Source: Candidatus Heimdallarchaeum aukensis (GTDB taxonomy: Archaea; Asgardarchaeota; Heimdallarchaeia; Heimdallarchaeales; Heimdallarchaeaceae). Taken from it: a DNA stretch of 64,000 nucleotides. This document shows, piece by piece, positions 3,015-54,494 of this stretch. The stretch spans positions 1,248,001 through 1,312,000 of the forward strand of contig CP084166.1 of assembly GCA_021513695.1 (NCBI GenBank), written 5' to 3'. Numbering within the stretch: position 1 is the stretch's first letter; every line of letters begins with the position of its first letter. Below the pieces are notes generated by a model. That model searched no databases. It was given only the letters and a program-made list of their open reading frames with translations, and was not told the origin of the DNA. The translations under genes were made by a program, and so were the position numbers.

Positions 3015-3431
3015 ATGCATGAATATAGTTTAGCTTCAGCAATTGTTGACCAAGTTGAGCAAATAGCTCTAGAACATAAAGCTGTAAGAGTAAAAAAAAT
3101 CATTGTTTCAGCTAGTCCTTACGAGCTTATTATTCCTGAACTTCTGTATGGAGCTTATGAAATCATTATTTCAGAACGTGATATGTTTAAAGGCTCTACT
3201 TTAGAGTACAAAGTACAAAAAGCTGAAATTACTTGTTTAGATTGTGGATACCAAGGAGAACCTGATGAAGAAGGAGACCCTGAATTCGCATATAATTTTA
3301 AATGTCCAAAATGTGGGGGAAGAGATACACACATTAATATGAAGAGTATGGTTATCGAATCCATTGATTTAGAAATTCCCTCTAAAAATGAAGAAGAGAA
3401 GAAGGAAGAAGTTACTAATTTAAATCAATAA
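3015..3431 (+). CDS. hypA: Hydrogenase maturation nickel metallochaperone HypA
   Basis: MHEYSLA N-terminus (His2 Ni site), CxxC...CxxC zinc motif (CLDCG ... CPKCGG); immediately downstream of hypB. Confidence 0.85.
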   Translation: MHEYSLASAIVDQVEQIALEHKAVRVKKIIVSASPYELIIPELLYGAYEIIISERDMFKGSTLEYKVQKAEITCLDCGYQGEPDEEGDPEFAYNFKCPKCGGRDTHINMKSMVIESIDLEIPSKNEEEKKEEVTNLNQ

Positions 3432-4185
3432 AACGCAAAATTGCTTTTGCAGGAGTTGTTACTTCCTCATAAAGTTCAATTTTTTCTTTTTTTATAAAAT
3501 AATCTAAAGATTGCATTACTTTTACGTGAATTTCCAGAGGAACATTCCAAAATCTGGAAAGAGATTGACTTTTTATAATCTTGTAAATTTTTTCTAACTT
3601 TATTTTAGCTCTAATTTCTTTATTTTTTATAACTTGATTTCCCCACTTTTCGAGTTCTTTTTCTACCTTATCGAGAGAATTTGAAGGTGTAAAATAATTA
3701 TTTTTTTCCAATTCATTCACATAATAGGAAACAATAATGTTATCATACAAGCTTGTATAAAGATCTCCAATACATACATTTTTTGAAACTGACTTTAATT
3801 GTGTATAAAACTTCGTGATTGGCTTAACAAACTGGATTGTGTGTATCATTGAAACCAAGTCAAAAGAATGGCTAAAAGGTATTTCTAAAGCATTAGCTAC
3901 ACAAGTATAAACAGATCTATTTCTTTGTTTAGCAACTTTTAGCATTTCTTTATTTATATCAATTCCGTACAATTCTACATTTTTTGACCAAAGAGAAAGT
4001 TCTGCTCTTCCTGTTCCTATTCCAATACTTAACAAAGAATATCTTTTCTTTTCTGCACAATTAGTTCTCAGATAATTAATAACCTCATTTCTAAAAAAAA
4101 GTAAAAGTTCTTCTGGTACAGGACGAGTTTCGTCATACACAGACGCTAGATGACTAAATTTATGTAAATTCATTTCATTTCCCAA
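3415..4185 (-). CDS. SAM-dependent methyltransferase (class I)
   Basis: LLSIGIGTGRAELSL ... YGIDINKEML motif I/II; overlaps the downstream peptidase gene by 16 nt. Confidence 0.6.
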   Translation of the reverse strand: MGNEMNLHKFSHLASVYDETRPVPEELLLFFRNEVINYLRTNCAEKKRYSLLSIGIGTGRAELSLWSKNVELYGIDINKEMLKVAKQRNRSVYTCVANALEIPFSHSFDLVSMIHTIQFVKPITKFYTQLKSVSKNVCIGDLYTSLYDNIIVSYYVNELEKNNYFTPSNSLDKVEKELEKWGNQVIKNKEIRAKIKLEKIYKIIKSQSLSRFWNVPLEIHVKVMQSLDYFIKKEKIELYEEVTTPAKAILRFIDLN

Positions 4186-11721: not shown

Positions 11722-14700
11722 TCACCTTTTTTTCTTGTGATCTGGGCAAACGAAAACCTCTTCTGTTTTAAATAATCCTTTTTTGGTCACTTTAATAGCA
11801 TGTTTAGAACAAATGACTTTTCCACAGACATCACAATAGATGATATCATTGTCGCAAACTACATTGTTACAGAACGAACATTGTTTAACATGCTCTGTTG
11901 ACACAACCTCTTTACAGACAGAACATACTGCTGCATGTTTATTACATATCACATCTCCGCTAATTGAACAATATATAGTATGATTTGCACAAAGTGTTCG
12001 ACCACAAACTTCACAATCGTTTGATATTGACACTAATTGCATTTTAGGGGTTTTCTTTTCATAACAAGAATCACATAAGATGCTTATACTGGTTCCCAAA
12101 GTTGATTCAGCTATTCCTCTGATAAGTAATTCGTGACCTTTTTCATTAACTATATTTATTTCTGCTATAGAAACAGGAATGTATATTATTGCCGCATAGA
12201 TGTCTTGGATTTCATTTTGATTCGGAATGCTAAATGATTTTTTCTTGACCAATTTATCAAGATCGTCAAGTACCTCGACTTTTGTTTGAGATTTAATTTT
12301 TCTGTCTAGTTCTTTAACAATTTCCACATCTTTTTCTATTTCAGAAGTATAATTTTTTATAACTTGAGGTCCATATTGTAAAGTTTCAACTGCCTTTTTG
12401 TAACGCTTCACATCTGCGTCTCTTTTATATTTGTACTTATTTGTTACAATTGGTTTTAGTGTTGCATAAATGCTCTTTGCTTCCTCAATCTGAGCTTGAA
12501 ACTTTCTTACTTTGTCTCTTTTTTCAATCATCTTTGCAAAGTATTCATCTCTTTGTTTAGTTAGCTGTTTAATCCATGAATCGATTTTGTCCTTATATTT
12601 CTCTTCTATTTTTACTAACGAATCTTCGATATCTCGCTTCCATTCATCTTCATACATGCTTTTATCCATCCATAGTACATCCTGGAATGATTCAAGAATG
12701 GCTCTTGGTTTTCGTTGAACTTCTATAGTCTGGATGTTCGCAGATGGAGGTGCTATCAAGCTTCCAAGGTTTTTAAGAGGAAGAATAGAAAGGAGTTCTT
12801 CAAAAACATCTTCTGCTTGAAAAGGTATACTTTCTAGTCCCCATATTTTATCTTTTGAATCAAATTCTAATTTGTCCACTAGTGGAAAAATTCTTTTGAT
12901 TGGAAAATCTAAAGTAATTTCTTCCTTAACTACTTCTTCTCCAACCTTGACTTCTATTTCTCTTTTTGCATTTATATTAAAGTCTAACAACAAAAATGGA
13001 ACATAAGCAAGTTGAAGATAGTTTGTTCCTAGGTAGCTGAATTTTTTATCACCAAAAAACTTTGATAAAAGTTCTTTCAAATCAATCTTATCATATTTAA
13101 GATATTGTTTTTTGATTGTTTTAATAGACTTACTAAGATCTATTTTCTTAAGTTTATATTCTTCTTCATATTCTAATTTTTGTTCAGTAAAATCACTTGG
13201 AGTAATGTCTGTACCTATATCAAGTGTTTCTGAAGGGACTTCTGGAAAATCATCAAGTTCTTGCAGTCTTACTTCTGTATCTAAAAGACTTTCAACTTCT
13301 GAAAATTCTTGCAATTTAGACATCTCTTTTTCGATATCATCTAAACTTAATTCTTTTTCAATATCGGAGAAGTCCAAACTATCAATATCATAGCTGTAAC
13401 CATTTACCTCTTTACAAATTGATGGTGGAGGGTTCTTGTAGAGTTTAGACACATCATCATCAGATAAAGCTTTGTGCACTGAATATAACCATCTGGTCTT
13501 GAAACGAATAGGCTTTGGATAATTATCTGGTGAGAGTAGATAAAATTCTCCTGGTTCAAAATTTGGAAGATCATCAAGAATAAATCTTGCTGTTGGATGT
13601 GATTGTATCATTTTTTCTACTGTTCTTAAATCCTGTGGAGCCATGAAACGACCAAAAAAGAATGTGGAGACCTGACCAAAAGCTTTGTAATCTACATCAC
13701 TGATATTTTGTGTCGCAACTAACATTGACACTCCATATTTTCGACCTTGCTTAAATAATAGTTGTAACCATTTTTTCGTTGGAGGATTACGAGGATAAGG
13801 TGGAATTAATCCAGCTAATTCGTCAATATAGAAAATCAGTTGTGGTTCATGGGAAGGGTTAGAAAGCATATAAGTGTATAATCTTTGAGAGATAGTAGAG
13901 ATATAGAGATTTTTCAATTTCTGCGTATTAAGTGTATTAAGATAAATAATTGAGATTCTACATTTTCCTTCATGAGAAGATGTTTTAAGCATTTGAATAT
14001 TCAATTTCGGCCCTAAATTAAAAACTAAAGACTGAGCACCAACGGTTAAGAATTTTATATTCTTCACTAAAGTTTCTTTTTCTTTCTTTTCAAGAAGAGA
14101 GCGGTAAGATTCTGGCAAATAAGCTTCATCTGTATTGATAAGGTCCATTAACATCTTAAAATCTTGAACTAAGATATTTCTTTTCATAAACTCTTCGAAG
14201 AGAGCAGTAAGATAGGCTTTTACTGCTTTACCTTTATTTGAACTTAATTTATATCCAAGTACATCAACTAAATTGGTAGCCATTCCGTCTATAGCTAGTA
14301 TTTTTTCTTCTCTATCCAGCTGAGTTGGAGGAGGAATCAATGGATTTATTGAGAGAGGAATACCCTTTTCTGAAGCTGGAGTAAAAATAACAACTTCAAT
14401 TTTTTCTTTATATTCTTCGTAAAAATCTCTATTTACACCATATTTTTCAAGAGCTTCCCATTCAGCAACCATAGAAAGGCTACTTATATCTCCTTGAGGA
14501 TCGATAATTATAGCAGGAATATTATTTCTAATTGCTTCTTCAATTACAACCTTACAGGCAACAGTTTTTCCACTTCCTGATTGACCAAAAATTGCAACAT
14601 GTTTTTTCAAAGCTTTAGTTGGTAGAGTAACTTCTTCACCTGTTTCCTTACTTTTTCCTAAAGATAATATTGGTGCACTTTTTTCGTCATTCATATTCTT

Positions 14701-14739
14701 CAATATCAATGTGTGGTTGTTATCCTTAAACCTTTCCAA
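11722..14739 (-). CDS. HerA/FtsK-superfamily (DUF87-like) ATPase with a coiled-coil middle region and a C-terminal array of Cys/His zinc-ribbon repeats
   Basis: Walker A HVAIFGQSGSGKTVA followed by AIIIDPQGD (HerA-type), Walker B IFYIDELAGL, VATQNISDV. The C-terminus carries five or more CxxC(x4-5)CxxH units (CEVCGRTLCANH, CSVCKEV, CSFCNNVVCDND, CDVCGKVICSKH). Confidence 0.65.
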   Translation of the reverse strand: MERFKDNNHTLILKNMNDEKSAPILSLGKSKETGEEVTLPTKALKKHVAIFGQSGSGKTVACKVVIEEAIRNNIPAIIIDPQGDISSLSMVAEWEALEKYGVNRDFYEEYKEKIEVVIFTPASEKGIPLSINPLIPPPTQLDREEKILAIDGMATNLVDVLGYKLSSNKGKAVKAYLTALFEEFMKRNILVQDFKMLMDLINTDEAYLPESYRSLLEKKEKETLVKNIKFLTVGAQSLVFNLGPKLNIQMLKTSSHEGKCRISIIYLNTLNTQKLKNLYISTISQRLYTYMLSNPSHEPQLIFYIDELAGLIPPYPRNPPTKKWLQLLFKQGRKYGVSMLVATQNISDVDYKAFGQVSTFFFGRFMAPQDLRTVEKMIQSHPTARFILDDLPNFEPGEFYLLSPDNYPKPIRFKTRWLYSVHKALSDDDVSKLYKNPPPSICKEVNGYSYDIDSLDFSDIEKELSLDDIEKEMSKLQEFSEVESLLDTEVRLQELDDFPEVPSETLDIGTDITPSDFTEQKLEYEEEYKLKKIDLSKSIKTIKKQYLKYDKIDLKELLSKFFGDKKFSYLGTNYLQLAYVPFLLLDFNINAKREIEVKVGEEVVKEEITLDFPIKRIFPLVDKLEFDSKDKIWGLESIPFQAEDVFEELLSILPLKNLGSLIAPPSANIQTIEVQRKPRAILESFQDVLWMDKSMYEDEWKRDIEDSLVKIEEKYKDKIDSWIKQLTKQRDEYFAKMIEKRDKVRKFQAQIEEAKSIYATLKPIVTNKYKYKRDADVKRYKKAVETLQYGPQVIKNYTSEIEKDVEIVKELDRKIKSQTKVEVLDDLDKLVKKKSFSIPNQNEIQDIYAAIIYIPVSIAEINIVNEKGHELLIRGIAESTLGTSISILCDSCYEKKTPKMQLVSISNDCEVCGRTLCANHTIYCSISGDVICNKHAAVCSVCKEVVSTEHVKQCSFCNNVVCDNDIIYCDVCGKVICSKHAIKVTKKGLFKTEEVFVCPDHKKKR

Positions 14740-14821
14740 AGAGTTAACATAGATGAAGTTAACTTCAAAACAGATAACTACAAAATAAGTAAATTAAATA
14801 AAAAATTAGAAATAAGAAAAA

Positions 14822-15547
14822 TTATTTTACAATTACTTTTGATTGTACAATATGAGGGCTCACACTTTTGTTAAAACGTACAACAACGTTATTTTCTCTT
14901 GATTTACGTTTTCCATGTATGCGAGTAATTTTTCCGATTATTTCTAGATTATTTTCAGGATTAGTTACTATAGCCTTCCTACCAATATAATTTGCTAAAG
15001 GCATTTCAATGTTCAGTAATTTTACAATTATTGAATTATTTGATGATCTCCCTACTTTATCATGAACTATAGTCTGTACAACACCATATGTTTGAGAAAC
15101 AACTTTCTCTTTTTTAGGCTTTCTAGTCTTTGGTTTTTTAGTTTTAGGTTTTACTTTTGGAATAATTGGTTCCTTTTTCTTAACAGGAGTTATCTTTTCT
15201 TTCTTAGGTTTGGGCTCAGCTTTCTTCTTGGGCTCAGCTTTTGGTTCAGCTTTTGGTTTAGCTTTTGGTTTAGCTTTTGGTTTAGCTTTTGGTTCAGCTT
15301 TTGGTTTAGGTTCGGCTTTCTTCTTGGGTTCAACTTTTGCAGGAGTAGCTTTTTCACCAGCTGATTCTAGAATCTCTTTAGCTGCTCTTCTCATTTTATC
15401 AGCAGTTACTTTACCTACACCTGGGATTTCTGTTAACTCCTCAAGAGAAGCATTAGCAATTTTTTCTACAGTGTCAAATCCTCTCTTTTTTAGATCCTCT
15501 GCTTTTTTAGCACCAATCCCCGGAATATCAGTAATTTTTAGTTCCAT
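14822..15547 (-). CDS. Ribosomal protein L35Ae domain protein with an N-terminal HhH domain and K/P/A/E-rich repeat linker
   Basis: The C-terminal ~85 aa align to archaeal L35Ae (YGVV..NN.IIVK....IGRK.....IIGKITRIHG....VVVRF). The N-terminus DIPGIGAKKAEDLKKRGFDTVEKIANASLEELTEIPGVG is an HhH motif. The middle is (KPKAEP)n, encoded by 18-nt tandem DNA repeats. Confidence 0.7.
   Translation of the reverse strand: MELKITDIPGIGAKKAEDLKKRGFDTVEKIANASLEELTEIPGVGKVTADKMRRAAKEILESAGEKATPAKVEPKKKAEPKPKAEPKAKPKAKPKAKPKAEPKAEPKKKAEPKPKKEKITPVKKKEPIIPKVKPKTKKPKTRKPKKEKVVSQTYGVVQTIVHDKVGRSSNNSIIVKLLNIEMPLANYIGRKAIVTNPENNLEIIGKITRIHGKRKSRENNVVVRFNKSVSPHIVQSKVIVK
15195..15330. repeat. Coding tandem repeat (about seven 12-18-nt units, gcttttggtttagcttttggttcagc...) encoding the K/P/A/E low-complexity linker
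   Basis: Direct reading of the DNA; the repeat lies inside the 14822-15547 CDS. Confidence 0.8.
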
Positions 15548-15699
15548 TCTCTACACCTTACTAACTCAGAACTCAATCATTGTTTTAAAAATTTTTAGAT
15601 TGATTTCAGAAAAGATAATAATAAAAAAGATAGAAGATTTTTAAAGAAACAATATTAACCTAAAAATAGTTTTTAATTAGAAACTTTTTCTTAACTATA

Positions 15700-18403: not shown

Positions 18404-19900
18404 TTACTTACCTAATAATTTTTTTGCATTAGTAATATATTTTTCTGCAGTTGCTGGGCCGATACCTTTGATTTTTACTAATTCATCTATAGATGCATTA
18501 GCAAGTTTATCTACAGTTTCAAATCCTGCTTCTTTTAACAATTCAGCTTTTGACTCTCCGATTCCGGGGACATCCACAAGAGAAAACTGTGATACTTCAT
18601 TTGATTCTTCATCAATTTTCATTGGAGTTGGAATTTCTGAATCAATGGTTTGTTTAGGTTTTGATACTTTATCTAGTTGATTTTGAGTAGGCTTTTTAAT
18701 TGTAAGAATCTTTTCTTGGTGTGGTGGAGTTTCTTTAGTTAGTAACTTCTCTTTTGTTTCGTCTTTTTTCTTTTTGAGCACTTCACTTGGTCTTAGCAAT
18801 GTATGTTCTTTCTTTTCATCTTGAGCAACACCTACAGTTCTTGAGACTACAGGAATTGTTTCTCTTTTTCTTAAATACTCTGAAGGCTTAAGTAATCTTT
18901 CTGAAGGAGCATCATCTTCTCTTACGTCGATTTCAAACATTTTACGTTCTTTATCAAAAATTGTCTCTTTCTCTTTTACTACTTCACTTGGTTTCAAAAG
19001 ATTTTTATCTGGAGGAACACGTTTACTTTCTTCTCTTTTTAATGGGGGTAACACTTGAACTTTTGGAGATTTTGTAGGTCCTCTATCAAGAATCTCACTG
19101 GGTTTGGTTAATTTATCGACTTGTGGTTCAAATCTTTTTTTTGGTAGGGGTAGAACGTTTTCATGAACAACAGGTTCAACTTTTTTGTCTTTAGGTTCAG
19201 AACTAGTTTCAATTTTTCTAATATCCTTAAAACTTCCAGCAGGCTGCAACTTCCTTACGGGGGCAGTTTCTTTTTGTTCAATAGGAGTGGGAATAACTTT
19301 TGCTTCACGGATTGGAACACCAGTAGACTTTAACCTCGCTCGGACATCAGCAGCAGTTTCTCCTAAAGAGTAATCTTTTTCTTTTCTAATTACAGATGGT
19401 TCAGACTTTGATTCAACAACAGGCTCATGATAAACAACTTTAGCTTCCCTAACAGGAACACCAGGAGATGACAATAGACTTCTATAGCTTGAAGGCTTTT
19501 CAGCAAGAGAAGGTTTTACTGGTTCATCATAAACTACTTTGGCCTCTCTTATTTTATGACCAGTCCGTTTTAGAGCAACACCTGTATTTAGAGGAAGTAA
19601 TTCTTCTTCTAATTTATCCTCATTTATATCTTGAATCCCAAAATCACTTAAGAATTCTGAAAACCAAAAGGAAAATCTTCTGAAATTTAGTTGACCAGCA
19701 ATAGTTCCTTCCCAAAAATTATAACACATCTTTGCTAATTGATCCAATGAACTAAATGGACGAGTTTCTATTGCATGTTTCCCATCGAAAAAATAAACAG
19801 TCCCACTTATTGTGGGTGAAAAAGTTGTTGATTTTGGTTCTAGAGCTACACCATATCTTGTAGAACCAATCAATCTTTTAGGTCTTTGCGGAATAGACAT
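18404..19900 (-). CDS. Repetitive Lys/Glu/Pro-rich protein with C-terminal HhH domain
   Basis: Three G(V/H)(P/K)IREAKVVY repeats and four L(L/T)KPSE(V/I/Y)L repeats. C-terminus VDVPGIGESKAELLKEAGFETVDKLANASIDELVKIKGIGPATAEK is HhH2. Confidence 0.5.
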   Translation of the reverse strand: MSIPQRPKRLIGSTRYGVALEPKSTTFSPTISGTVYFFDGKHAIETRPFSSLDQLAKMCYNFWEGTIAGQLNFRRFSFWFSEFLSDFGIQDINEDKLEEELLPLNTGVALKRTGHKIREAKVVYDEPVKPSLAEKPSSYRSLLSSPGVPVREAKVVYHEPVVESKSEPSVIRKEKDYSLGETAADVRARLKSTGVPIREAKVIPTPIEQKETAPVRKLQPAGSFKDIRKIETSSEPKDKKVEPVVHENVLPLPKKRFEPQVDKLTKPSEILDRGPTKSPKVQVLPPLKREESKRVPPDKNLLKPSEVVKEKETIFDKERKMFEIDVREDDAPSERLLKPSEYLRKRETIPVVSRTVGVAQDEKKEHTLLRPSEVLKKKKDETKEKLLTKETPPHQEKILTIKKPTQNQLDKVSKPKQTIDSEIPTPMKIDEESNEVSQFSLVDVPGIGESKAELLKEAGFETVDKLANASIDELVKIKGIGPATAEKYITNAKKLLGK

Positions 19901-42254: not shown

Positions 42255-43301
42255 ATGCCAATAGAACCAATGACTAAGGCAGTTGGAGTAGATCTCGGTA
42301 CATCAACAATAAAACTAGTGAGTGGGAATCATTCTTATCGGATTCCCTCAGTAATTGGATCACCAAATCCTGGATGGTCAGGAATGGTGCAAGACAAAAG
42401 TTGGTTAAACAACTTAATAATTGAGGATGCAAATGGAAATGACGTTTATATCGGAGAACTCGCTAGATTACAAAGTGAAATACGTAAGTCTTTAGCTAGC
42501 GAGGGTAAAATGAAGTCTATTGAAAATAGTATATTAGCCTTAAAAGCAATTTTAAGTTTAATTATGAAATCCAATTACGAGCAATTTGTTGTTGCAACTG
42601 GAGTTCCTATTGCTACTGGAGTTGAAGAAAGTAAAGAACTAATTAGAGGACTTAAGGGAACCCACGAAATTAAGGTAAAAAATGATGCTACCGGAGAAAC
42701 AAAGCAAATGAAAATACTCGTGGAACAAGCTTTAGTTATGCCTGAGCCTTATGGAACCTATTACAATATATTAAAAACATCTGGAGTTACTACAGCTGTC
42801 GATTCAGTCATTGTAGACATAGGACATGGTACTACGGACATTTTATGTATGTATAATGGGCGTATAATGAGAGCCGCTTCAGGCTCATTAGAGGAAGCAA
42901 CAGATAGCTTAACAAGTGCCCTTTCAAGAGCAATTCAAGAAAAAAGTGGAAAAATCATTCGACCTTTTGATCTTATGAAAACTATAGAACAAGGCAAGAG
43001 GACAATTCTTGCGGGAGGAAAAGTATTAGACATCGGAAGTGCAGTAGATCAATCTATTGAAACTATCTCAGAAGTAATTATTGACGAGACAAATCGATTA
43101 CTAAATAACCTTCCACCTGATGCATGGATAGAAAAAGTTATGGTTACTGGTGGAGGAGCCTACATTTTTGGTAAATACTTAAAACAAGCTTTCTTTGAAG
43201 CAGACATTGTAAAATCGCCAGATGAAGTAATTGTTCCTAAAGATGCAGTAATGTCTAATGCTATTGGTTTTGAAATGATTGCAAAAACAAAAATGAAGTA
43301 A
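42255..43301 (+). CDS. Actin-fold ATPase (MreB/ParM-like actin homolog)
   Basis: Phosphate-1 VGVDLGTSTIKLV, phosphate-2 VDIGHGTTDI, adenosine motif VTGGGAYIFG; AAGGAG Shine-Dalgarno-like motif upstream. Confidence 0.75.
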   Translation: MPIEPMTKAVGVDLGTSTIKLVSGNHSYRIPSVIGSPNPGWSGMVQDKSWLNNLIIEDANGNDVYIGELARLQSEIRKSLASEGKMKSIENSILALKAILSLIMKSNYEQFVVATGVPIATGVEESKELIRGLKGTHEIKVKNDATGETKQMKILVEQALVMPEPYGTYYNILKTSGVTTAVDSVIVDIGHGTTDILCMYNGRIMRAASGSLEEATDSLTSALSRAIQEKSGKIIRPFDLMKTIEQGKRTILAGGKVLDIGSAVDQSIETISEVIIDETNRLLNNLPPDAWIEKVMVTGGGAYIFGKYLKQAFFEADIVKSPDEVIVPKDAVMSNAIGFEMIAKTKMK

Positions 43302-44869: not shown

Positions 44870-47800
44870 TTAAAACTGTCTTTTTCTTAAAATATAGACT
44901 AAAGACATTAAGGTTACAAGCCCAACAAATATTGATGTATAAGGTGTTTTTGTTGGCTCAGTCTCTGTTGGTTCAGTAGGAGCAGTCTTATACAGTATAT
45001 AGTCTGCATCTAGAACATTTCCAAAATCATCTACTGCATATACATGAATAATATTCTTCTCTTGTGTTAAATGATATGGATATATTCTAAATGAAGCAGA
45101 TTTTGCACCAACAGAAAGTTGAACCTCTTCACCATTTAATGTTACTGAAATGTTATTTGCTGAACTCAATTCATCTTTAACAGTAAAGTCGATATAAGCA
45201 CCAGTCATAGCAGAACCGTTTGTCCAACCTCCACTTCCTATCAGAATAGGAGGTGTGCTATCTAGAATAAATTGACCTATGTATTTATCATCAGTAGTTA
45301 ATATTGTAAAAGTATACTTTCCATCTTCTTCAAGTGTCATTGAATATGAATAAGTTCCAGTTCCAGTGCTAGTAAGAGTAACATCTGTTTTTGTTTCTGT
45401 ACCGTTTACATCAACATATGTCACAGAAGCACTTAATGATGTAGAAGCGGGTATGGCTGTAATATCAAAATCAACTTTGTTGTCTGCTCTTGTAGCATAA
45501 ACAACTACTTTATTGTCTGCAAGTAACCACTTAATAAGATTGTCTGCAAAAACAGCATTTGTAGTTCCGTCATTATAATTTTCGACAAAACCTTCTGTAT
45601 CTATAAAGAAGTTAGTTGTACAAACTACTACTCTTCCTCCGTTCTCATTCTCAAAAGCTGCTGCTGTTGCTTCTCCTTCAAATTCTAATAATTCAACAGC
45701 TTTTCCTGTTGTTGTTAAGGAGGTTCCATAATGATCAACTTTGGCTACATTTTCAGTTATTCTGTGAAGATTTTTTACATTTGCAGTAAGAGGTTCTTCA
45801 AAACTATAAAATCCTTCATCTACTTGAATGTCATAAGGCTCAATGAGTTTGTTTACCATTGTAACATTGTTTCCAATAACCAACCCATAATCTGGATCCT
45901 TTGATGCTCCAAGAAGATCAATAAACAATGATCCTCCATTCGCCACATAGTCTTGTATAGCTGTTATTTCATCTGCTGTTAATGCGCCATAAGTTTGAGC
46001 TTTAGTGGATGGAAAATTTGGATAGATGGTATTAAATGGATCAGCGAACCAAATTGCATCGTAATCAGCTAGCAATTCTGAAGTTATTTCTCCTTTAGTT
46101 ATTTCGTTTACTGCTATTCCCTTACTGTTTAGATCTTCAATAAAGTAAATATATTGGCCTAATAAATGGTCCATTCCCCAGTTTGTATGCATCTTTGCTA
46201 GTAAAATTCTCTTTTCTCCAGGTACAACTTTAACTTTTATTATTGTCTCTGCTGTAACTCCTTTAGCTGTTTCAAAAGTTATTTTTCCTTCATAATCTCC
46301 TACAGCAGCATCTAGAGGGACATCAAAGATAAGTTCATAGTTTTTGTCCCAAGGATCTGTTGCTGGGGTGGTATTTAATGTGGCAATTTGAGTAATTGTT
46401 CCTGATAAGACTGGTGTTTTATCTTCCCAAGGAGTAGAAGATACAGATTTAACATAAATAGAAGCATAGAAACCTTGGTTTATCTCTTGATAGAATGGCA
46501 CATCAAGTTCTGGAATAGCCCATAATAGAACTGGAAAACCGCTATCGTTTTTAGGAGCGGCTTTAATTAAGTCTAATGCTTTTCCTAAATCTGGAACTCC
46601 TGCACCAAATTTCAAATAATCTAATCCTTGATCATCAGCTGAAAGCATCATTGCAGTCTTAATCATACCTGCATCATAAGGAATGCTCAATCCTTTTAAG
46701 ACATCAATAAGTACAGCTGCTGCTCCAGTAATTGCAGGAGTAGACATTGAAGTTCCTTGCATAGAAACATAATCAGTAGAACTTGCGATACCACAGCTCA
46801 TAATACCCATACCAGGAGCTGCTAGATCAGGTTTTACATATCCATCAGCAGTAGGACCGACAGAACTGAAATAAGCTTGTCCTTGACCGGTTTGTTTAGT
46901 TGCAGCTACAGAAATACTTTGAGCTTCTGCCCCAGGAGACTCAACTGTATAATAGTTTGTTCCACTATTTCCAGCTGCGACTGCAACAAGAATATTATTT
47001 AGGTAAAGTTCTCTAATCATTGCTTCTTCAGCATCTTGTCCTTCAGTATCTGTTCCACCCCAACTGAGGTTTATTACATTCACAATAGTTCCATTCTCTT
47101 TTAATTCTAGAGCATACTCAAAAGCAGCAATAAAAGCCTCAGGAGGAGCAGGACTTCCTAAGCGTCCTACAAGGATTTTTGCTTCAGGAGCCATTCCTAT
47201 ATATTCAGCATTTCCTACTCCAGCTCCAGCCATAATTCCAGCTGTGTGAGTACCATGTCCATTTTCATCTTCAATACTAGGATCATTAATATCATAACCG
47301 TTTTCCTTGGTAATGAAAGACTTACTTTCTTCCATTATTCTTCCTTGGAAATCAACATGTTGAGTATTAATTCCTGAGTCAATATCATATGCGATAATAG
47401 AGCTTCCCTTATATCCTAAATCCCATAAGAAACTTACATTTAGAATATCAGCTGTCTGCTTAGTCAATTTAATTTTTTCAGCATTAGATACAAGATAGAC
47501 TGGATCTTCTGGTTGCTTAATTTGAGTATATTTAGTATCAGTTAAATCGAAAACATTCTTTACTCCGTCAATTGATTTCAAGTTATCTTTTTCACTTAAC
47601 ATGTCTTCAACAATTACCATTTTTAAATAAGGATAGACTCGTTTTACATCATGTTGAGAGACAAAATTCTCTAATGCTTCAGGATTAGAGAAGTGAATAA
47701 GATATTTTCGCATCGAATCGACAAATGGTTGTTGAATTTCAACTTCTCTGGGTTCAATTGAAACTTCAGAACTTACTTGTTCTGTATTCGCGTGAATTAT

Positions 47801-47911: not shown

Positions 47912-50285
47912 AAAAGTGCTTTTAATTATCTAAATAAATTATTAAGTAAATTATTATGCAAAAAGTCGTACCAAAATTTTAAAAAATACCACTCAAACCT
48001 AAATATTAGCAGTTAGTAACTATTGTATCTATTATTTGAGAGATTCAACTATTAAATTAACAATAAGAATTCAACAGAAGTGGAAAAATGAGTGAAAAAG
48101 TAGGTATCATTGCATATGGAATATATATTCCGCGAAATAGAATTACTGTCGATGAGATCGCCAGTATATGGGGAGAAGATGCTAACGAAATAAAATCTCA
48201 ACTGCAAATTTTTGAAAAATCTGTTCCTTTTCCAGATGAAGATGTAGCAACCATGGCTGTCGAAGCAGCGCGTAATGCAATGAAACAATGGGGAGGAGAA
48301 GCAGAAAAAATAGGTGCAATATATGTTGGAAGTGAATCTCATCCATACGCCGTTAAACCAACTGCAACGATTGTTGCAGCTGCAATAGGCGCAGAAGGAG
48401 AAACGACGGCAGCAGATTTGGAATTTGCATGTAAAGCAGGAACTGCAGGCATGCAAATGTGTTTTGGATTAATTCAGTCAAACATGATCAAGGTTGGTCT
48501 AGCTATAGGTTCTGATAGTAGTCAAGCTAAACCAAAAGACCCATTAGAGTACACTGCGGGTGCAGGAAGTGCCGCATTTTTAATTGGTAAGCAGGATATT
48601 ATCGCAGAGCTTGAGGGTACATATTCTTACACTTCTGATACTCCAGATTTCTGGAGAAGAGAAGGAGCAACTTTTCCCTCTCATGGTCAAAGGTTTACTG
48701 GTATGCCTGCTTATTTTGATCATATTATAAAAGCAACAAAAGGATTATTAGAAAAAATCGATAGAAAGCCTGAAGACTATGATTACGTAACATTTCACCA
48801 ACCTAACACAAAATTTCCTTTAAGAGTAGCTAAAATGTTAGGTTTTTCTAAAGAGCAAATCGAAAATAGTTTGGCGTGTAAGTACGTAGGAAACACATAT
48901 TCTGCTTCATCTATGATTGGATTTGCAAAAATTTTGGATGAAGCACAACCAGGCGATAAAGTTCTTGTAACTTCATATGGAAGTGGAGCAGGAAGTGATG
49001 CTTTTTCTTTTAAAATTACAGAAAACATCGAAAAAATAAGGAGTAGATCTAAAACTGTTCAATATTATATTGAAAATAAAAGAAATATCAGCTATGGTCT
49101 CTATTCCCGCTATAAAGGAATTTTAAAGGTGTAAGTATGAGTAATGAAGTATATATAATTGGTACTGGACAAACAAAATTTGGTGAATTTTTTAATTTAA
49201 ACATTGGTGATCTTGCTTCTGAAGCAGTTAACAAAGCTATTGAAAACGCGGGAATAGGAAAAGATGAGATAAGAACGCTATTTATTGGGTCAACAGTTTC
49301 TAACTCTCTTTCTCAATCATCAATAGGCGGAATTTGTACTAGAAGTTGTAGTTTATCTTCTAACGCTTACAGGATTGAATCTGGAAATGCTAGTGGTGCA
49401 GCTGCATTCCACCACGCTTTTTTAAGCATAAAAAGTGGGTTATATGACGTTGTTGCTGTATTAGGAATTGATAAATTATCAGATTATATCCAAAATGGAA
49501 CAATTGAAAAAATTTTAGCTTCATCCATTGATTACCAATGGGAATACGAAATGGGAGCTACCCTCACAGGATTATACTCTTTTCTGACTCAAGCTCATAT
49601 GGAAGAATATGGAACAACATTAGAACAGCTAGCTTATATTCCAACGAAAAACCATCAAAATGGAGTTCTAAACCCAAAAGCTCAATATAGGTATGCTATC
49701 CCACTAGAAAAATTTCTTAATGCAAAAAGAATTGCTGACCCTATTGGAAGGTTTGATGTGGCTACACCTTGTGACGGTGCAGCAGTAGTAATATTAGCTT
49801 CTGAAAGATATATTGAAAATAAAAAACCACATTCTTACAAGGTAAAAATTCTCTCCTCATCAGCTGGTTCAGACACTTTAGCTTTGCAACACAGAGAAAA
49901 ACTAACAGAGTTAAAAGCAACTAGACTGGCTGTTAACGATGCTTACAATAAAGCCAAAATTTCAGCAAATGATATTAATGTTGCAGAAGTACATGATTCA
50001 CACCCAATTGGAGAGATATTAGCAATAGAAGATCTTGGTTTGGTACCTAAAGGTGAAGGAGGAAAAGCAACTGTAGAAGGGTTGACTGCGCTAAACGGAA
50101 AGATAACTGTTAACCCAAGTGGAGGATTAAAAGCTAGGGGTGATCCTTTCGGAGCAACAGGAATTGCACAGTTAATAGAAATCGTTGAACAAATAAGAGG
50201 AAATGCTGGAAAAAGACAAGTCGAGGATGTAAAATATGGGTTAACACAAAATGTCATGGGAACAGGGGTTATGTCCTATGTTTCT
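46101..50285. repeat. Unit A of a perfect 4185-bp tandem direct duplication
   Basis: All ORFs in 46101-50285 recur with identical translations at +4185 (48088/52273, 49137/53322, protease N-terminus 47911/52096). The junction near 50285-50288 shares a tatt microhomology. Confidence 0.85.
48088..49134 (+). CDS. Archaeal hydroxymethylglutaryl-CoA synthase (copy A)
   Basis: MSEKVGIIAYGIYIPRNRI N-terminus, catalytic Cys context EFACKAG, 348 aa; precedes a thiolase gene (HMGCS/thiolase/DUF35 operon). Confidence 0.85.
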   Translation: MSEKVGIIAYGIYIPRNRITVDEIASIWGEDANEIKSQLQIFEKSVPFPDEDVATMAVEAARNAMKQWGGEAEKIGAIYVGSESHPYAVKPTATIVAAAIGAEGETTAADLEFACKAGTAGMQMCFGLIQSNMIKVGLAIGSDSSQAKPKDPLEYTAGAGSAAFLIGKQDIIAELEGTYSYTSDTPDFWRREGATFPSHGQRFTGMPAYFDHIIKATKGLLEKIDRKPEDYDYVTFHQPNTKFPLRVAKMLGFSKEQIENSLACKYVGNTYSASSMIGFAKILDEAQPGDKVLVTSYGSGAGSDAFSFKITENIEKIRSRSKTVQYYIENKRNISYGLYSRYKGILKV

Positions 50286-50333
50286 ATTTCGTTTACTGCT
50301 ATTCCCTTACTGTTTAGATCTTCAATAAAGTAA
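49137..50333 (+). CDS. Thiolase (acetyl-CoA acetyltransferase), copy A, with a junction-derived C-terminal tail
   Basis: Identical to copy B for 382 aa, then reads SFTAIPLLFRSSIK across the duplication junction instead of LGRGDN. Confidence 0.7.
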   Translation: MSNEVYIIGTGQTKFGEFFNLNIGDLASEAVNKAIENAGIGKDEIRTLFIGSTVSNSLSQSSIGGICTRSCSLSSNAYRIESGNASGAAAFHHAFLSIKSGLYDVVAVLGIDKLSDYIQNGTIEKILASSIDYQWEYEMGATLTGLYSFLTQAHMEEYGTTLEQLAYIPTKNHQNGVLNPKAQYRYAIPLEKFLNAKRIADPIGRFDVATPCDGAAVVILASERYIENKKPHSYKVKILSSSAGSDTLALQHREKLTELKATRLAVNDAYNKAKISANDINVAEVHDSHPIGEILAIEDLGLVPKGEGGKATVEGLTALNGKITVNPSGGLKARGDPFGATGIAQLIEIVEQIRGNAGKRQVEDVKYGLTQNVMGTGVMSYVSISFTAIPLLFRSSIK

Positions 50334-52096: not shown

Positions 52097-54470
52097 AAAA
52101 GTGCTTTTAATTATCTAAATAAATTATTAAGTAAATTATTATGCAAAAAGTCGTACCAAAATTTTAAAAAATACCACTCAAACCTAAATATTAGCAGTTA
52201 GTAACTATTGTATCTATTATTTGAGAGATTCAACTATTAAATTAACAATAAGAATTCAACAGAAGTGGAAAAATGAGTGAAAAAGTAGGTATCATTGCAT
52301 ATGGAATATATATTCCGCGAAATAGAATTACTGTCGATGAGATCGCCAGTATATGGGGAGAAGATGCTAACGAAATAAAATCTCAACTGCAAATTTTTGA
52401 AAAATCTGTTCCTTTTCCAGATGAAGATGTAGCAACCATGGCTGTCGAAGCAGCGCGTAATGCAATGAAACAATGGGGAGGAGAAGCAGAAAAAATAGGT
52501 GCAATATATGTTGGAAGTGAATCTCATCCATACGCCGTTAAACCAACTGCAACGATTGTTGCAGCTGCAATAGGCGCAGAAGGAGAAACGACGGCAGCAG
52601 ATTTGGAATTTGCATGTAAAGCAGGAACTGCAGGCATGCAAATGTGTTTTGGATTAATTCAGTCAAACATGATCAAGGTTGGTCTAGCTATAGGTTCTGA
52701 TAGTAGTCAAGCTAAACCAAAAGACCCATTAGAGTACACTGCGGGTGCAGGAAGTGCCGCATTTTTAATTGGTAAGCAGGATATTATCGCAGAGCTTGAG
52801 GGTACATATTCTTACACTTCTGATACTCCAGATTTCTGGAGAAGAGAAGGAGCAACTTTTCCCTCTCATGGTCAAAGGTTTACTGGTATGCCTGCTTATT
52901 TTGATCATATTATAAAAGCAACAAAAGGATTATTAGAAAAAATCGATAGAAAGCCTGAAGACTATGATTACGTAACATTTCACCAACCTAACACAAAATT
53001 TCCTTTAAGAGTAGCTAAAATGTTAGGTTTTTCTAAAGAGCAAATCGAAAATAGTTTGGCGTGTAAGTACGTAGGAAACACATATTCTGCTTCATCTATG
53101 ATTGGATTTGCAAAAATTTTGGATGAAGCACAACCAGGCGATAAAGTTCTTGTAACTTCATATGGAAGTGGAGCAGGAAGTGATGCTTTTTCTTTTAAAA
53201 TTACAGAAAACATCGAAAAAATAAGGAGTAGATCTAAAACTGTTCAATATTATATTGAAAATAAAAGAAATATCAGCTATGGTCTCTATTCCCGCTATAA
53301 AGGAATTTTAAAGGTGTAAGTATGAGTAATGAAGTATATATAATTGGTACTGGACAAACAAAATTTGGTGAATTTTTTAATTTAAACATTGGTGATCTTG
53401 CTTCTGAAGCAGTTAACAAAGCTATTGAAAACGCGGGAATAGGAAAAGATGAGATAAGAACGCTATTTATTGGGTCAACAGTTTCTAACTCTCTTTCTCA
53501 ATCATCAATAGGCGGAATTTGTACTAGAAGTTGTAGTTTATCTTCTAACGCTTACAGGATTGAATCTGGAAATGCTAGTGGTGCAGCTGCATTCCACCAC
53601 GCTTTTTTAAGCATAAAAAGTGGGTTATATGACGTTGTTGCTGTATTAGGAATTGATAAATTATCAGATTATATCCAAAATGGAACAATTGAAAAAATTT
53701 TAGCTTCATCCATTGATTACCAATGGGAATACGAAATGGGAGCTACCCTCACAGGATTATACTCTTTTCTGACTCAAGCTCATATGGAAGAATATGGAAC
53801 AACATTAGAACAGCTAGCTTATATTCCAACGAAAAACCATCAAAATGGAGTTCTAAACCCAAAAGCTCAATATAGGTATGCTATCCCACTAGAAAAATTT
53901 CTTAATGCAAAAAGAATTGCTGACCCTATTGGAAGGTTTGATGTGGCTACACCTTGTGACGGTGCAGCAGTAGTAATATTAGCTTCTGAAAGATATATTG
54001 AAAATAAAAAACCACATTCTTACAAGGTAAAAATTCTCTCCTCATCAGCTGGTTCAGACACTTTAGCTTTGCAACACAGAGAAAAACTAACAGAGTTAAA
54101 AGCAACTAGACTGGCTGTTAACGATGCTTACAATAAAGCCAAAATTTCAGCAAATGATATTAATGTTGCAGAAGTACATGATTCACACCCAATTGGAGAG
54201 ATATTAGCAATAGAAGATCTTGGTTTGGTACCTAAAGGTGAAGGAGGAAAAGCAACTGTAGAAGGGTTGACTGCGCTAAACGGAAAGATAACTGTTAACC
54301 CAAGTGGAGGATTAAAAGCTAGGGGTGATCCTTTCGGAGCAACAGGAATTGCACAGTTAATAGAAATCGTTGAACAAATAAGAGGAAATGCTGGAAAAAG
54401 ACAAGTCGAGGATGTAAAATATGGGTTAACACAAAATGTCATGGGAACAGGGGTTATGTCCTATGTTTCT
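50286..54470. repeat. Unit B of the 4185-bp tandem direct duplication
   Basis: See unit A. Confidence 0.85.
52273..53319 (+). CDS. Archaeal hydroxymethylglutaryl-CoA synthase (copy B)
   Basis: Identical translation to copy A. Confidence 0.85.
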   Translation: MSEKVGIIAYGIYIPRNRITVDEIASIWGEDANEIKSQLQIFEKSVPFPDEDVATMAVEAARNAMKQWGGEAEKIGAIYVGSESHPYAVKPTATIVAAAIGAEGETTAADLEFACKAGTAGMQMCFGLIQSNMIKVGLAIGSDSSQAKPKDPLEYTAGAGSAAFLIGKQDIIAELEGTYSYTSDTPDFWRREGATFPSHGQRFTGMPAYFDHIIKATKGLLEKIDRKPEDYDYVTFHQPNTKFPLRVAKMLGFSKEQIENSLACKYVGNTYSASSMIGFAKILDEAQPGDKVLVTSYGSGAGSDAFSFKITENIEKIRSRSKTVQYYIENKRNISYGLYSRYKGILKV

Positions 54471-54494
54471 ATTCTAGGGAGAGGTGATAATTAA
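53322..54494 (+). CDS. Thiolase (acetyl-CoA acetyltransferase), intact copy B
   Basis: 390 aa, thiolase fold motifs (GSGAGS ... CDG), native C-terminus; stop overlaps the DUF35 start. Confidence 0.85.
   Translation: MSNEVYIIGTGQTKFGEFFNLNIGDLASEAVNKAIENAGIGKDEIRTLFIGSTVSNSLSQSSIGGICTRSCSLSSNAYRIESGNASGAAAFHHAFLSIKSGLYDVVAVLGIDKLSDYIQNGTIEKILASSIDYQWEYEMGATLTGLYSFLTQAHMEEYGTTLEQLAYIPTKNHQNGVLNPKAQYRYAIPLEKFLNAKRIADPIGRFDVATPCDGAAVVILASERYIENKKPHSYKVKILSSSAGSDTLALQHREKLTELKATRLAVNDAYNKAKISANDINVAEVHDSHPIGEILAIEDLGLVPKGEGGKATVEGLTALNGKITVNPSGGLKARGDPFGATGIAQLIEIVEQIRGNAGKRQVEDVKYGLTQNVMGTGVMSYVSILGRGDN

Follow-up and report, generated by a model that had tools for sequence, protein, structure and literature searches.

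Archaeal ribosomal protein eL33 (L35Ae, PF01247; 2LP6, 4V6U/9QF4 chain Bc, 6SKG chain Bf) is a beta-barrel with a conserved G-K-I-x-R-x-H-G core that normally forms a protein by itself, while eukaryotic eL33 has a short N-terminal extension only and no helix-hairpin-helix (HhH) domain. A ribosomal protein that does carry such a domain is represented by the NCBIfam model PRK12766 (NF009401), built for haloarchaeal eL32 with an N-terminal HhH. We found no description of HhH-fused ribosomal proteins in the literature searched; the eL32 version appears to be known only as a database model, and the eL33 version reported here appears to be undescribed. The gene in question lies in a 64,000-nucleotide stretch of Candidatus Heimdallarchaeum aukensis (contig CP084166.1, positions 1,248,001 to 1,312,000; hereafter the window) and encodes an HhH domain, a polycationic linker and an eL33-like barrel in one polypeptide. 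We consider this protein, with a probability of roughly 60%, to be the large-subunit ribosomal protein eL33 of Heimdallarchaeaceae-type Asgard archaea, in a divergent form with a permanent N-terminal arm, and it would be incorporated into ribosomes as such. The coordinates of its reading frame are exactly those given in a preliminary description of the window, and the parts of the gene are as follows.

14822..15547, minus strand: coding sequence of the fusion protein (HhH, linker and eL33 barrel), 241 residues plus a TAA stop, with an ATG start; from the list of open reading frames and the sequence
15353..15547, minus strand: (HhH)2 domain, residues 1-65; Pfam HHH_5, two helix-hairpin-helix motifs with GIG and GVG hairpins
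15098..15352, minus strand: disordered polycationic linker rich in K, P, A and E, residues 66-150; from composition and model confidence
15234..15309, minus strand: tandem DNA repeat within the linker, period 12 nucleotides (24 and 36 being multiples); Tandem Repeats Finder
15092..15178, minus strand: basic segment before the barrel, residues 124-152 (..PIIPKVKPKTKKPKTRKPKKEKVVSQ); from the family alignment
14825..15097, minus strand: divergent eL33/L35Ae beta-barrel, residues 151-241, the fold itself spanning residues 153-240; from hhalign, Foldseek, model confidence and a profile search of the PDB

The C-terminal domain is a divergent eL33 barrel

Single-sequence comparisons with curated families place the barrel near L35Ae, but below their thresholds. 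PF01247 matched the whole protein at residues 187-240 with E=0.011 and 16.3 bits, rising to 19.3 bits when the barrel was searched alone (cut-off 27), and the NCBIfam equivalog model of archaeal L35ae (PRK04337; NF003326) matched residues 169-239 with E=7.7e-6 and 25.9 bits (cut-off 85). Nine of ten members of the fusion family were nevertheless matched by PF01247, the best with E=7e-6. When a profile of the family barrels was aligned to 20 canonical L35Ae proteins with hhalign, the two matched end to end (83 of 96 columns, probability 98%, E=1.8e-13), and a profile of ten family barrels searched against the PDB with hmmsearch retrieved eL33 chains only. An AlphaFold2 model, built from a 12-sequence family alignment, gave residues 153-240 a predicted local distance difference test score (pLDDT) of 82-91. 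The first 38 Foldseek matches to this fold in the PDB were without exception eL33/L35Ae chains of ribosomes from archaea and eukaryotes, with template modelling scores of 0.78-0.79 to the eL33 chains of P. furiosus and T. kodakarensis. Homology of the barrel to eL33 is secure, because the profile search of the PDB matched eL33 chains only and the hhalign alignment runs end to end at 98%. The convincing alignment with L35Ae that the preliminary description had claimed thus holds for profiles and structure, while the curated cut-offs are missed.

Besides the shared fold, the fusion barrel and archaeal eL33 have in common the G-K-I-x-R-x-H-G core and a set of G, N and R positions. We take the L35Ae signature to be G-K-[LIVM]-x-R-x-H-G ... 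[LI]-P-G-Q, a consensus checked against the canonical alignment; its first half is kept in the barrel (GKITRIHG) and its second half is not. The fusion also differs from canonical archaeal L35Ae in its 150-residue N-terminal extension, the canonical proteins standing alone, as had been stated at the outset, and being 83-117 residues long. Basic N-terminal additions to eL33 occur elsewhere too: a JGI metagenome protein of 117 residues, P0132, is otherwise a canonical L35Ae but has a short Lys-rich addition at its N-terminus (..KETAEPKAVKKEVKAKPKVE..).

When the barrel alone was searched against 1.84 billion representative proteins, 13 matches had E<=0.001. Every full-length relative with E<1e-10 was a protein of 200-282 residues with a C-terminal barrel and the same fusion architecture, two further matches were fragments of 60 and 67 residues, and the sole canonical L35Ae within the threshold had E=2.6e-4. 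The closest canonical L35Ae, P0031, was set aside; the one named member of its group comes from Desulfurococcales and says nothing about Asgard archaea. P0031 shares no gene context with the fusion: its gene lies between a Mut7-C gene and topoisomerase VI, that of the fusion between pcp and a HerA-like gene.

An HhH domain and a variable polycationic linker precede the barrel

The N-terminal domain belongs to Pfam HHH_5 (PF14520), which matched residues 5-58 with E=6.1e-16 and 59.1 bits against a cut-off of 27. Its two hairpins read PGIGAKKA and PGVGKVTA, and the model places helices at residues 13-21, 27-32, 35-38 and 46-65 with a pLDDT of 76-88. The closest solved fold to residues 1-60 is the N-terminal (HhH)2 domain of RadA/Rad51 (38-39% identity, root-mean-square deviation 1.1-1.5 Å by Foldseek), which differs in being joined to a recombinase ATPase core, with neither a polybasic linker nor a ribosomal context.

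The linker consists of 40% K, 21% P, 12% A and 11% E and has a net charge of +26. Its pLDDT is below 50 across residues 67-123 and 53-63 from there to about residue 150. The last part corresponds to the basic segment at residues 124-152, which has the same pLDDT of 53-63, is partly kept across the family as (I/V)P.(I/V)K.KK and may contact rRNA. Within the linker the DNA repeats 6.1 times with 96% match (Tandem Repeats Finder scores 125-141) and encodes the peptide unit KPKA/EPKA; the 18-nucleotide unit proposed in the preliminary description is replaced by the 12-nucleotide period listed above. The length polymorphism that it predicted is real, as the linkers of orthologues vary from about 67 to 163 residues and are made of differing repeat units. 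Eukaryotic ribosomal-protein tails, the C-terminal tail of histone H1 and TonB-type (EP/KP)n spacers are likewise Lys/Pro-rich, low-complexity and disordered, but their likeness to the linker is compositional and not one of homology. The label 'histone-tail-like' is therefore an analogy only, the nearest real relatives being the HhH-plus-linker modules of archaeal eL32 and uS4. Matches to TonB, PARP and circumsporozoite protein were rejected as compositional and restricted to the linker.

The fusion is conserved as one reading frame

A scan of one genome per GTDB species, made with patterns specific to the fused family, located this family in 15 genomes; all are labelled Heimdallarchaeota, and one of them is the complete Ca. 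Heimdallarchaeum endolithica chromosome. The named NCBI members of the family are labelled Heimdallarchaeaceae. Fourteen of the 15 have a complete, uninterrupted reading frame of 218-313 residues with the HhH domain first; in the fifteenth it is cut by the contig end. Three independent H. endolithica assemblies each contain one reading frame as well. The extension is thus found in related Asgard genomes, and the single polypeptide of HhH domain, linker and L35Ae domain proposed from the window sequence is a conserved architecture.

Gene order is also maintained. One flank of the fusion gene holds genes for a PHP-domain protein, a small membrane protein and pyroglutamyl peptidase (pcp). The other holds a pair of small membrane proteins, which Heimdallarchaeum lacks, and after them a HerA-like ATPase of 1000 residues. 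The two small membrane proteins are tandem paralogous glycine-rich proteins of about 120 residues encoded about 40 nucleotides 3' of the fusion gene (for example at 3321-3680 and 3747-4100 of locus L007). Fourteen of the 15 species genomes (L007-L020) have the pair after the fusion gene, and L006 lacks it; neither Heimdallarchaeum genome has it, since it is missing from both L006 and the window. The HerA/FtsK-like ATPase gene is downstream of the fusion gene in 16 of 16 loci. Its representative in the window (11722-14739, minus strand) encodes 1005 residues (DUF87), which form a coiled coil in the middle and include many CxxC zinc-ribbon repeats towards the C-terminus.

Some metagenome-assembled genomes (MAGs) call the locus as two genes, as would be expected if an HhH gene and an adjacent normal L35Ae gene had been merged in other assemblies by an insertion or deletion in a low-complexity repeat. 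Contig L001 (3007-3790), nearly identical to the window, has 53 and 5 additional nucleotides in the linker, the 53-nucleotide difference lying in the repeat at 15234-15309, and is called as 136 plus 60 residues. L025 (1280-2190) is called as 74 plus 229 residues and another contig as 98 plus 171. However, L025 is 100% identical to the intact L026 (1501-2421) except for a 10-nucleotide deletion at the edge of a 27-nucleotide tandem repeat, and the split versions yield either a truncated barrel (the 60-residue product starts at M182) or a barrel preceded by linker without HhH. There is no conserved start codon or Shine-Dalgarno sequence before the barrel. In the window gene no ATG, GTG or TTG is in frame between residues 53 and 181; the internal in-frame start codons are M52 in the HhH domain and M182 and V229 in the barrel. 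The earlier statement that no Met or stop separates the parts accordingly holds for the linker. As the breaks fall in or near repeats, the sequence is otherwise identical and the barrel is left without a usable start, we read the split calls as probable assembly errors or rare variants and not as two genes. An artefactual fusion, which has next to no likelihood, was rejected because of the 14 intact orthologues, from independent species genomes, together with the L025/L026 comparison; the three H. endolithica assemblies agree with them, and a frameshift or stop separating an HhH gene from a normal-length L35Ae is not borne out. The split calls come from several MAGs of one sequencing project, which likely reflects a systematic assembly problem for such repeats. 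The practical point is that tandem repeats in the linker lead to frameshifted gene calls in MAG assemblies.

The HhH-linker module occurs on other ribosomal proteins

Residues 4-148 of the fusion protein match positions 11-157 of the 238-position PRK12766 profile with E=2e-11 and 43.9 bits. As the cut-off is 239 bits, PF01655 has no match and only the HhH and linker part aligns, the protein is not a member of this HhH-eL32 family. In the H. marismortui 50S crystals we take the HhH extension of eL32 to be not ordered. The haloarchaeal eL32 sequences of PDB chains 1JJ2, 1S72 and 9L94 carry the HhH-linker extension, and in Loki-, Thor- and Hodarchaeota, too, eL32 starts with an HhH domain and K/P/A/E repeats. 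In a Hodarchaeota MAG the HhH-eL32 gene lies in the spc operon between uL6 and eL19 (L022, 5001-5825), and this position makes the eL32 fusion the working ribosomal protein. A metagenome scan for eL32 gave 44 loci, all of 42-55% G+C and none from metagenomes 3300033149 and 3300033150, which hold the Heimdallarchaeaceae-type clade. Among the metagenome eL32 loci (L028-L068), 35 of 36 complete Asgard-type ones bear the HhH module in one or two copies, with linkers of the form (KPKAEA)n. Locus L050 has a long K-rich extension without a recognizable HhH.

The HhH-linker-eL32 proteins, which include Haloarcula marismortui L32e, resemble the window protein in having the same N-terminal module of HHH_5 and (K-P-K-A-E)n type and in having as carrier a small large-subunit protein of archaeal/eukaryotic type. 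They differ in that the carrier is eL32 and not eL33, some have two HhH copies, and the eL32 fusion is widespread whereas that on eL33 occurs in a single Heimdall-group clade only. A third carrier is uS4. Archaeal metagenome uS4 proteins (P0011-P0017) end in a K/P/E-rich linker and a homologous HhH, and on a metagenome contig the gene lies between uS13 and uS11 (L023, 6001-6900; L024, 2040-2939). Here, unlike in the eL33 fusion, the module is C-terminal and the carrier is a small-subunit protein, so the module has no fixed place on the ribosome. The HhH domains of the eL33, eL32 and uS4 fusions are 34-60% identical to one another; that of uS4 reaches 59% identity to the HhH of an eL33 fusion and is no more distant from some eL33 copies than these are among themselves. 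Genuine ribosomal proteins, eL32 and uS4, thus carry the HhH-linker module, which supports the identification of the eL33 fusion as a ribosomal protein.

A protein of the same general plan is encoded elsewhere in the window (18404-19900, minus strand). It has 498 residues, with about 95 N-terminal residues lacking a Pfam match, a long disordered middle with the repeats GVP[IV]REAKVVY (three times) and LLKPSE[VY]L.K (four times), and a C-terminal HHH_5 domain that is 51% identical to the HhH of the eL33 fusion. Its orthologue is present in Ca. H. endolithica (L002, 4368-5861).

Ribosomal protein or paralogue

That the fusion is the eL33 of these archaea is supported, besides the homology of the barrel and the parallel fusions, by the pattern of conservation, with mean pairwise identities among family members of 65% for the HhH domain and 57% for the barrel while the linker varies in length and repeat unit. 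It also agrees with published inventories. A review gives eL33 as 'distribution unknown' in Heimdallarchaeota (PMC9932298), and this status fits an eL33 hidden as an unrecognized fusion, annotated as 'hypothetical' or 'HhH domain-containing protein'. Several findings weigh against this identification. The barrel stays under the curated cut-offs of Pfam (16-19 against 27 bits) and NCBIfam (26 against 85); the P-G-Q motif, invariant in 20 canonical L35Ae proteins, is replaced by S-P-H (V-S-P-H); a 4-residue insertion follows the conserved HG; and identity to canonical L35Ae is about 25-32%, canonical proteins being 33-86%, mostly 38-53%, identical to the Pyrococcus protein. Furthermore, the gene is outside ribosomal operons, with pyroglutamyl peptidase and the HerA-like ATPase as neighbours, and its barrel is no more conserved than the neighbouring genes (49-76% identity). 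Finally, the search for a canonical eL33, made with a profile of three canonical L35Ae proteins, was too limited to show that a second copy is absent. It scored 143 word-sharing candidates, for which clusters gave hardly any organism names, and none was a canonical eL33 named Heimdallarchaeum or Heimdallarchaeaceae, which is not evidence of absence; the same non-exhaustive search gave no canonical L35Ae match on the 3.33-Mb H. endolithica chromosome. Within the 64-kb window, a family hidden Markov model run against all six-frame open reading frames found only the fusion gene.

Level conservation with the neighbours and the position outside a ribosomal operon make a non-ribosomal paralogue a serious rival, although we consider it unlikely. 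By this account the protein would bind nucleic acid in association with chromatin or RNA, with an L35Ae-like barrel put to new use alongside an HhH domain and a basic tail like that of H1. The genome would then either encode a canonical eL33 at another site or have lost eL33 from its set of ribosomal proteins. Such a loss would have precedent, since eL33 has frequently been lost among archaea (bioRxiv 10.1101/2021.01.31.429008), and the divergence of the barrel, with its motif replacement, insertion and low curated scores, also speaks for this account. HhH domains and K/P/A tails are typical of DNA binders, the nearest solved HhH being that of RadA/Rad51, the HerA/FtsK-like ATPase gene is adjacent in all loci, and the protein with the same HhH on a long disordered linker, four genes away, is non-ribosomal. 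Nevertheless, the homology covers the whole L35Ae domain with its core G-K-I-x-R-x-H-G retained, the same module is attached to two proteins that are certainly ribosomal, and no canonical eL33 of this family turned up, within the limits of the search given above. A further alternative accepts the protein as a genuine eL33 and has its arm mainly recruit a protein, such as RNA polymerase, an assembly factor or a membrane partner. Some (HhH)2 domains do act through protein contacts, and the weak matches include NusA C-terminal repeats and the C-terminal domain of RNA polymerase alpha, but the gene neighbourhood suggests no partner and the strongly cationic linker argues for contact with nucleic acid, which makes this version improbable.

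Putative expression signals and other features of the window

Three elements flanking the fusion gene could serve its expression.

15583..15597, minus strand: A/T-rich TATA-like element AAAAATTTTTAAAA, about 40-50 nucleotides 5' of the ATG; read from the sequence
15554..15559, minus strand: Shine-Dalgarno-like AAGGTG, 6 nucleotides 5' of the ATG; read from the sequence
14789..14821, minus strand: oligo-T runs, candidate archaeal-type terminator directly 3' of the stop; conserved in the alignment

With Shine-Dalgarno-like and TATA-like elements upstream and oligo-T directly after the stop, the gene looks like its own (monocistronic) transcription unit, in which the three elements would act as putative promoter, ribosome-binding site and terminator. 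The AAGGTG motif is the same in the window, contig L001 and Ca. H. endolithica, and the TATA-like element sits within a stretch of 55 nucleotides over which the two Heimdallarchaeum species are 100% identical. This stretch, directly 5' of the start (15548-15602, minus strand), is invariant in the window, L001 and Ca. H. endolithica, while the coding region differs by about 10-15% in the same comparison. It could be a conserved promoter, leader or regulatory element.

Elsewhere in the window, a gene pair encoding HMG-CoA-synthase-like and thiolase-like proteins is duplicated (48088-50333 and 52273-54494; also 42255-43301), and a 300-nucleotide direct repeat occurs at 46083 and 50268 with 97% identity.

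Possible placement of the arm and its implications

Of the three carriers of the HhH-linker module, uS4 is a classical assembly initiator. The other two, eL32 and eL33, join early in ribosome assembly (PMC9932298). In yeast, eL33 is part of a cluster at domains II and VI and touches eL32, uL13 and the expansion segments ES7 and ES39, with its N-terminal residues facing eL6, which archaea lack (PMC9700599). In Lokiarchaeota and Heimdallarchaeota, ES39, which adjoins eL33, is supersized (PMC7594248). On the basis of these contacts, the enlargement of ES39, the early assembly of eL32 and eL33 and the initiator role of uS4, the barrel would dock where eL33 normally binds, on the solvent-facing side of the 50S subunit, at the junction of 23S rRNA domains II and VI, with eL32 and uL13 as neighbours and beside the ES7/ES39 region. 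The basic segment before the barrel would lie on rRNA, and the Lys/Pro-rich linker, probably extended, would project outward from the solvent face as a flexible polycationic tether. The (HhH)2 tip might then grip the backbone of duplex nucleic acid without sequence specificity, or bind a protein partner; its likely targets would be the enlarged ES39 rRNA, or DNA or nascent rRNA during early co-transcriptional subunit assembly.

A broader reading, which we put forward as a long shot, is that Asgard and haloarchaeal ribosomes have in the HhH-polycationic tether a mobile accessory module, repeatedly joined to the early-assembling, rRNA-nucleating proteins uS4, eL32 and, in Heimdallarchaeaceae, eL33, and that it anchors them to DNA or to rRNA that is nascent or expanded (ES39/ES7). 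If true, it would be a primitive way to concentrate ribosome assembly at rRNA genes or to couple ribosomes to the nucleoid, and the arm would take the place of the eukaryote-specific eL6 and the long protein tails of the 60S subunit. As a corollary, Heimdallarchaeaceae would have moved the module from eL32 to eL33.

For the family itself, the fusion gene probably fills the eL33 gap that inventories leave in Heimdallarchaeota. Because standard family cut-offs miss the fused form, it matters for ribosomal-protein marker sets, and a missed eL33 bears on the presence/absence tables used in debates on the origin of eukaryotes. Taken together, the eL33, eL32 and uS4 fusions suggest that archaeal ribosomes repeatedly bear a nucleic-acid-binding arm that has gone essentially unstudied; on eL32 and eL33 it would sit beside ES39, an expansion segment that these close relatives of eukaryotes have in enlarged form. 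Should it bind ES39 or DNA, the arm would be a prokaryotic equivalent of the extensions seen on eukaryotic ribosomal proteins.

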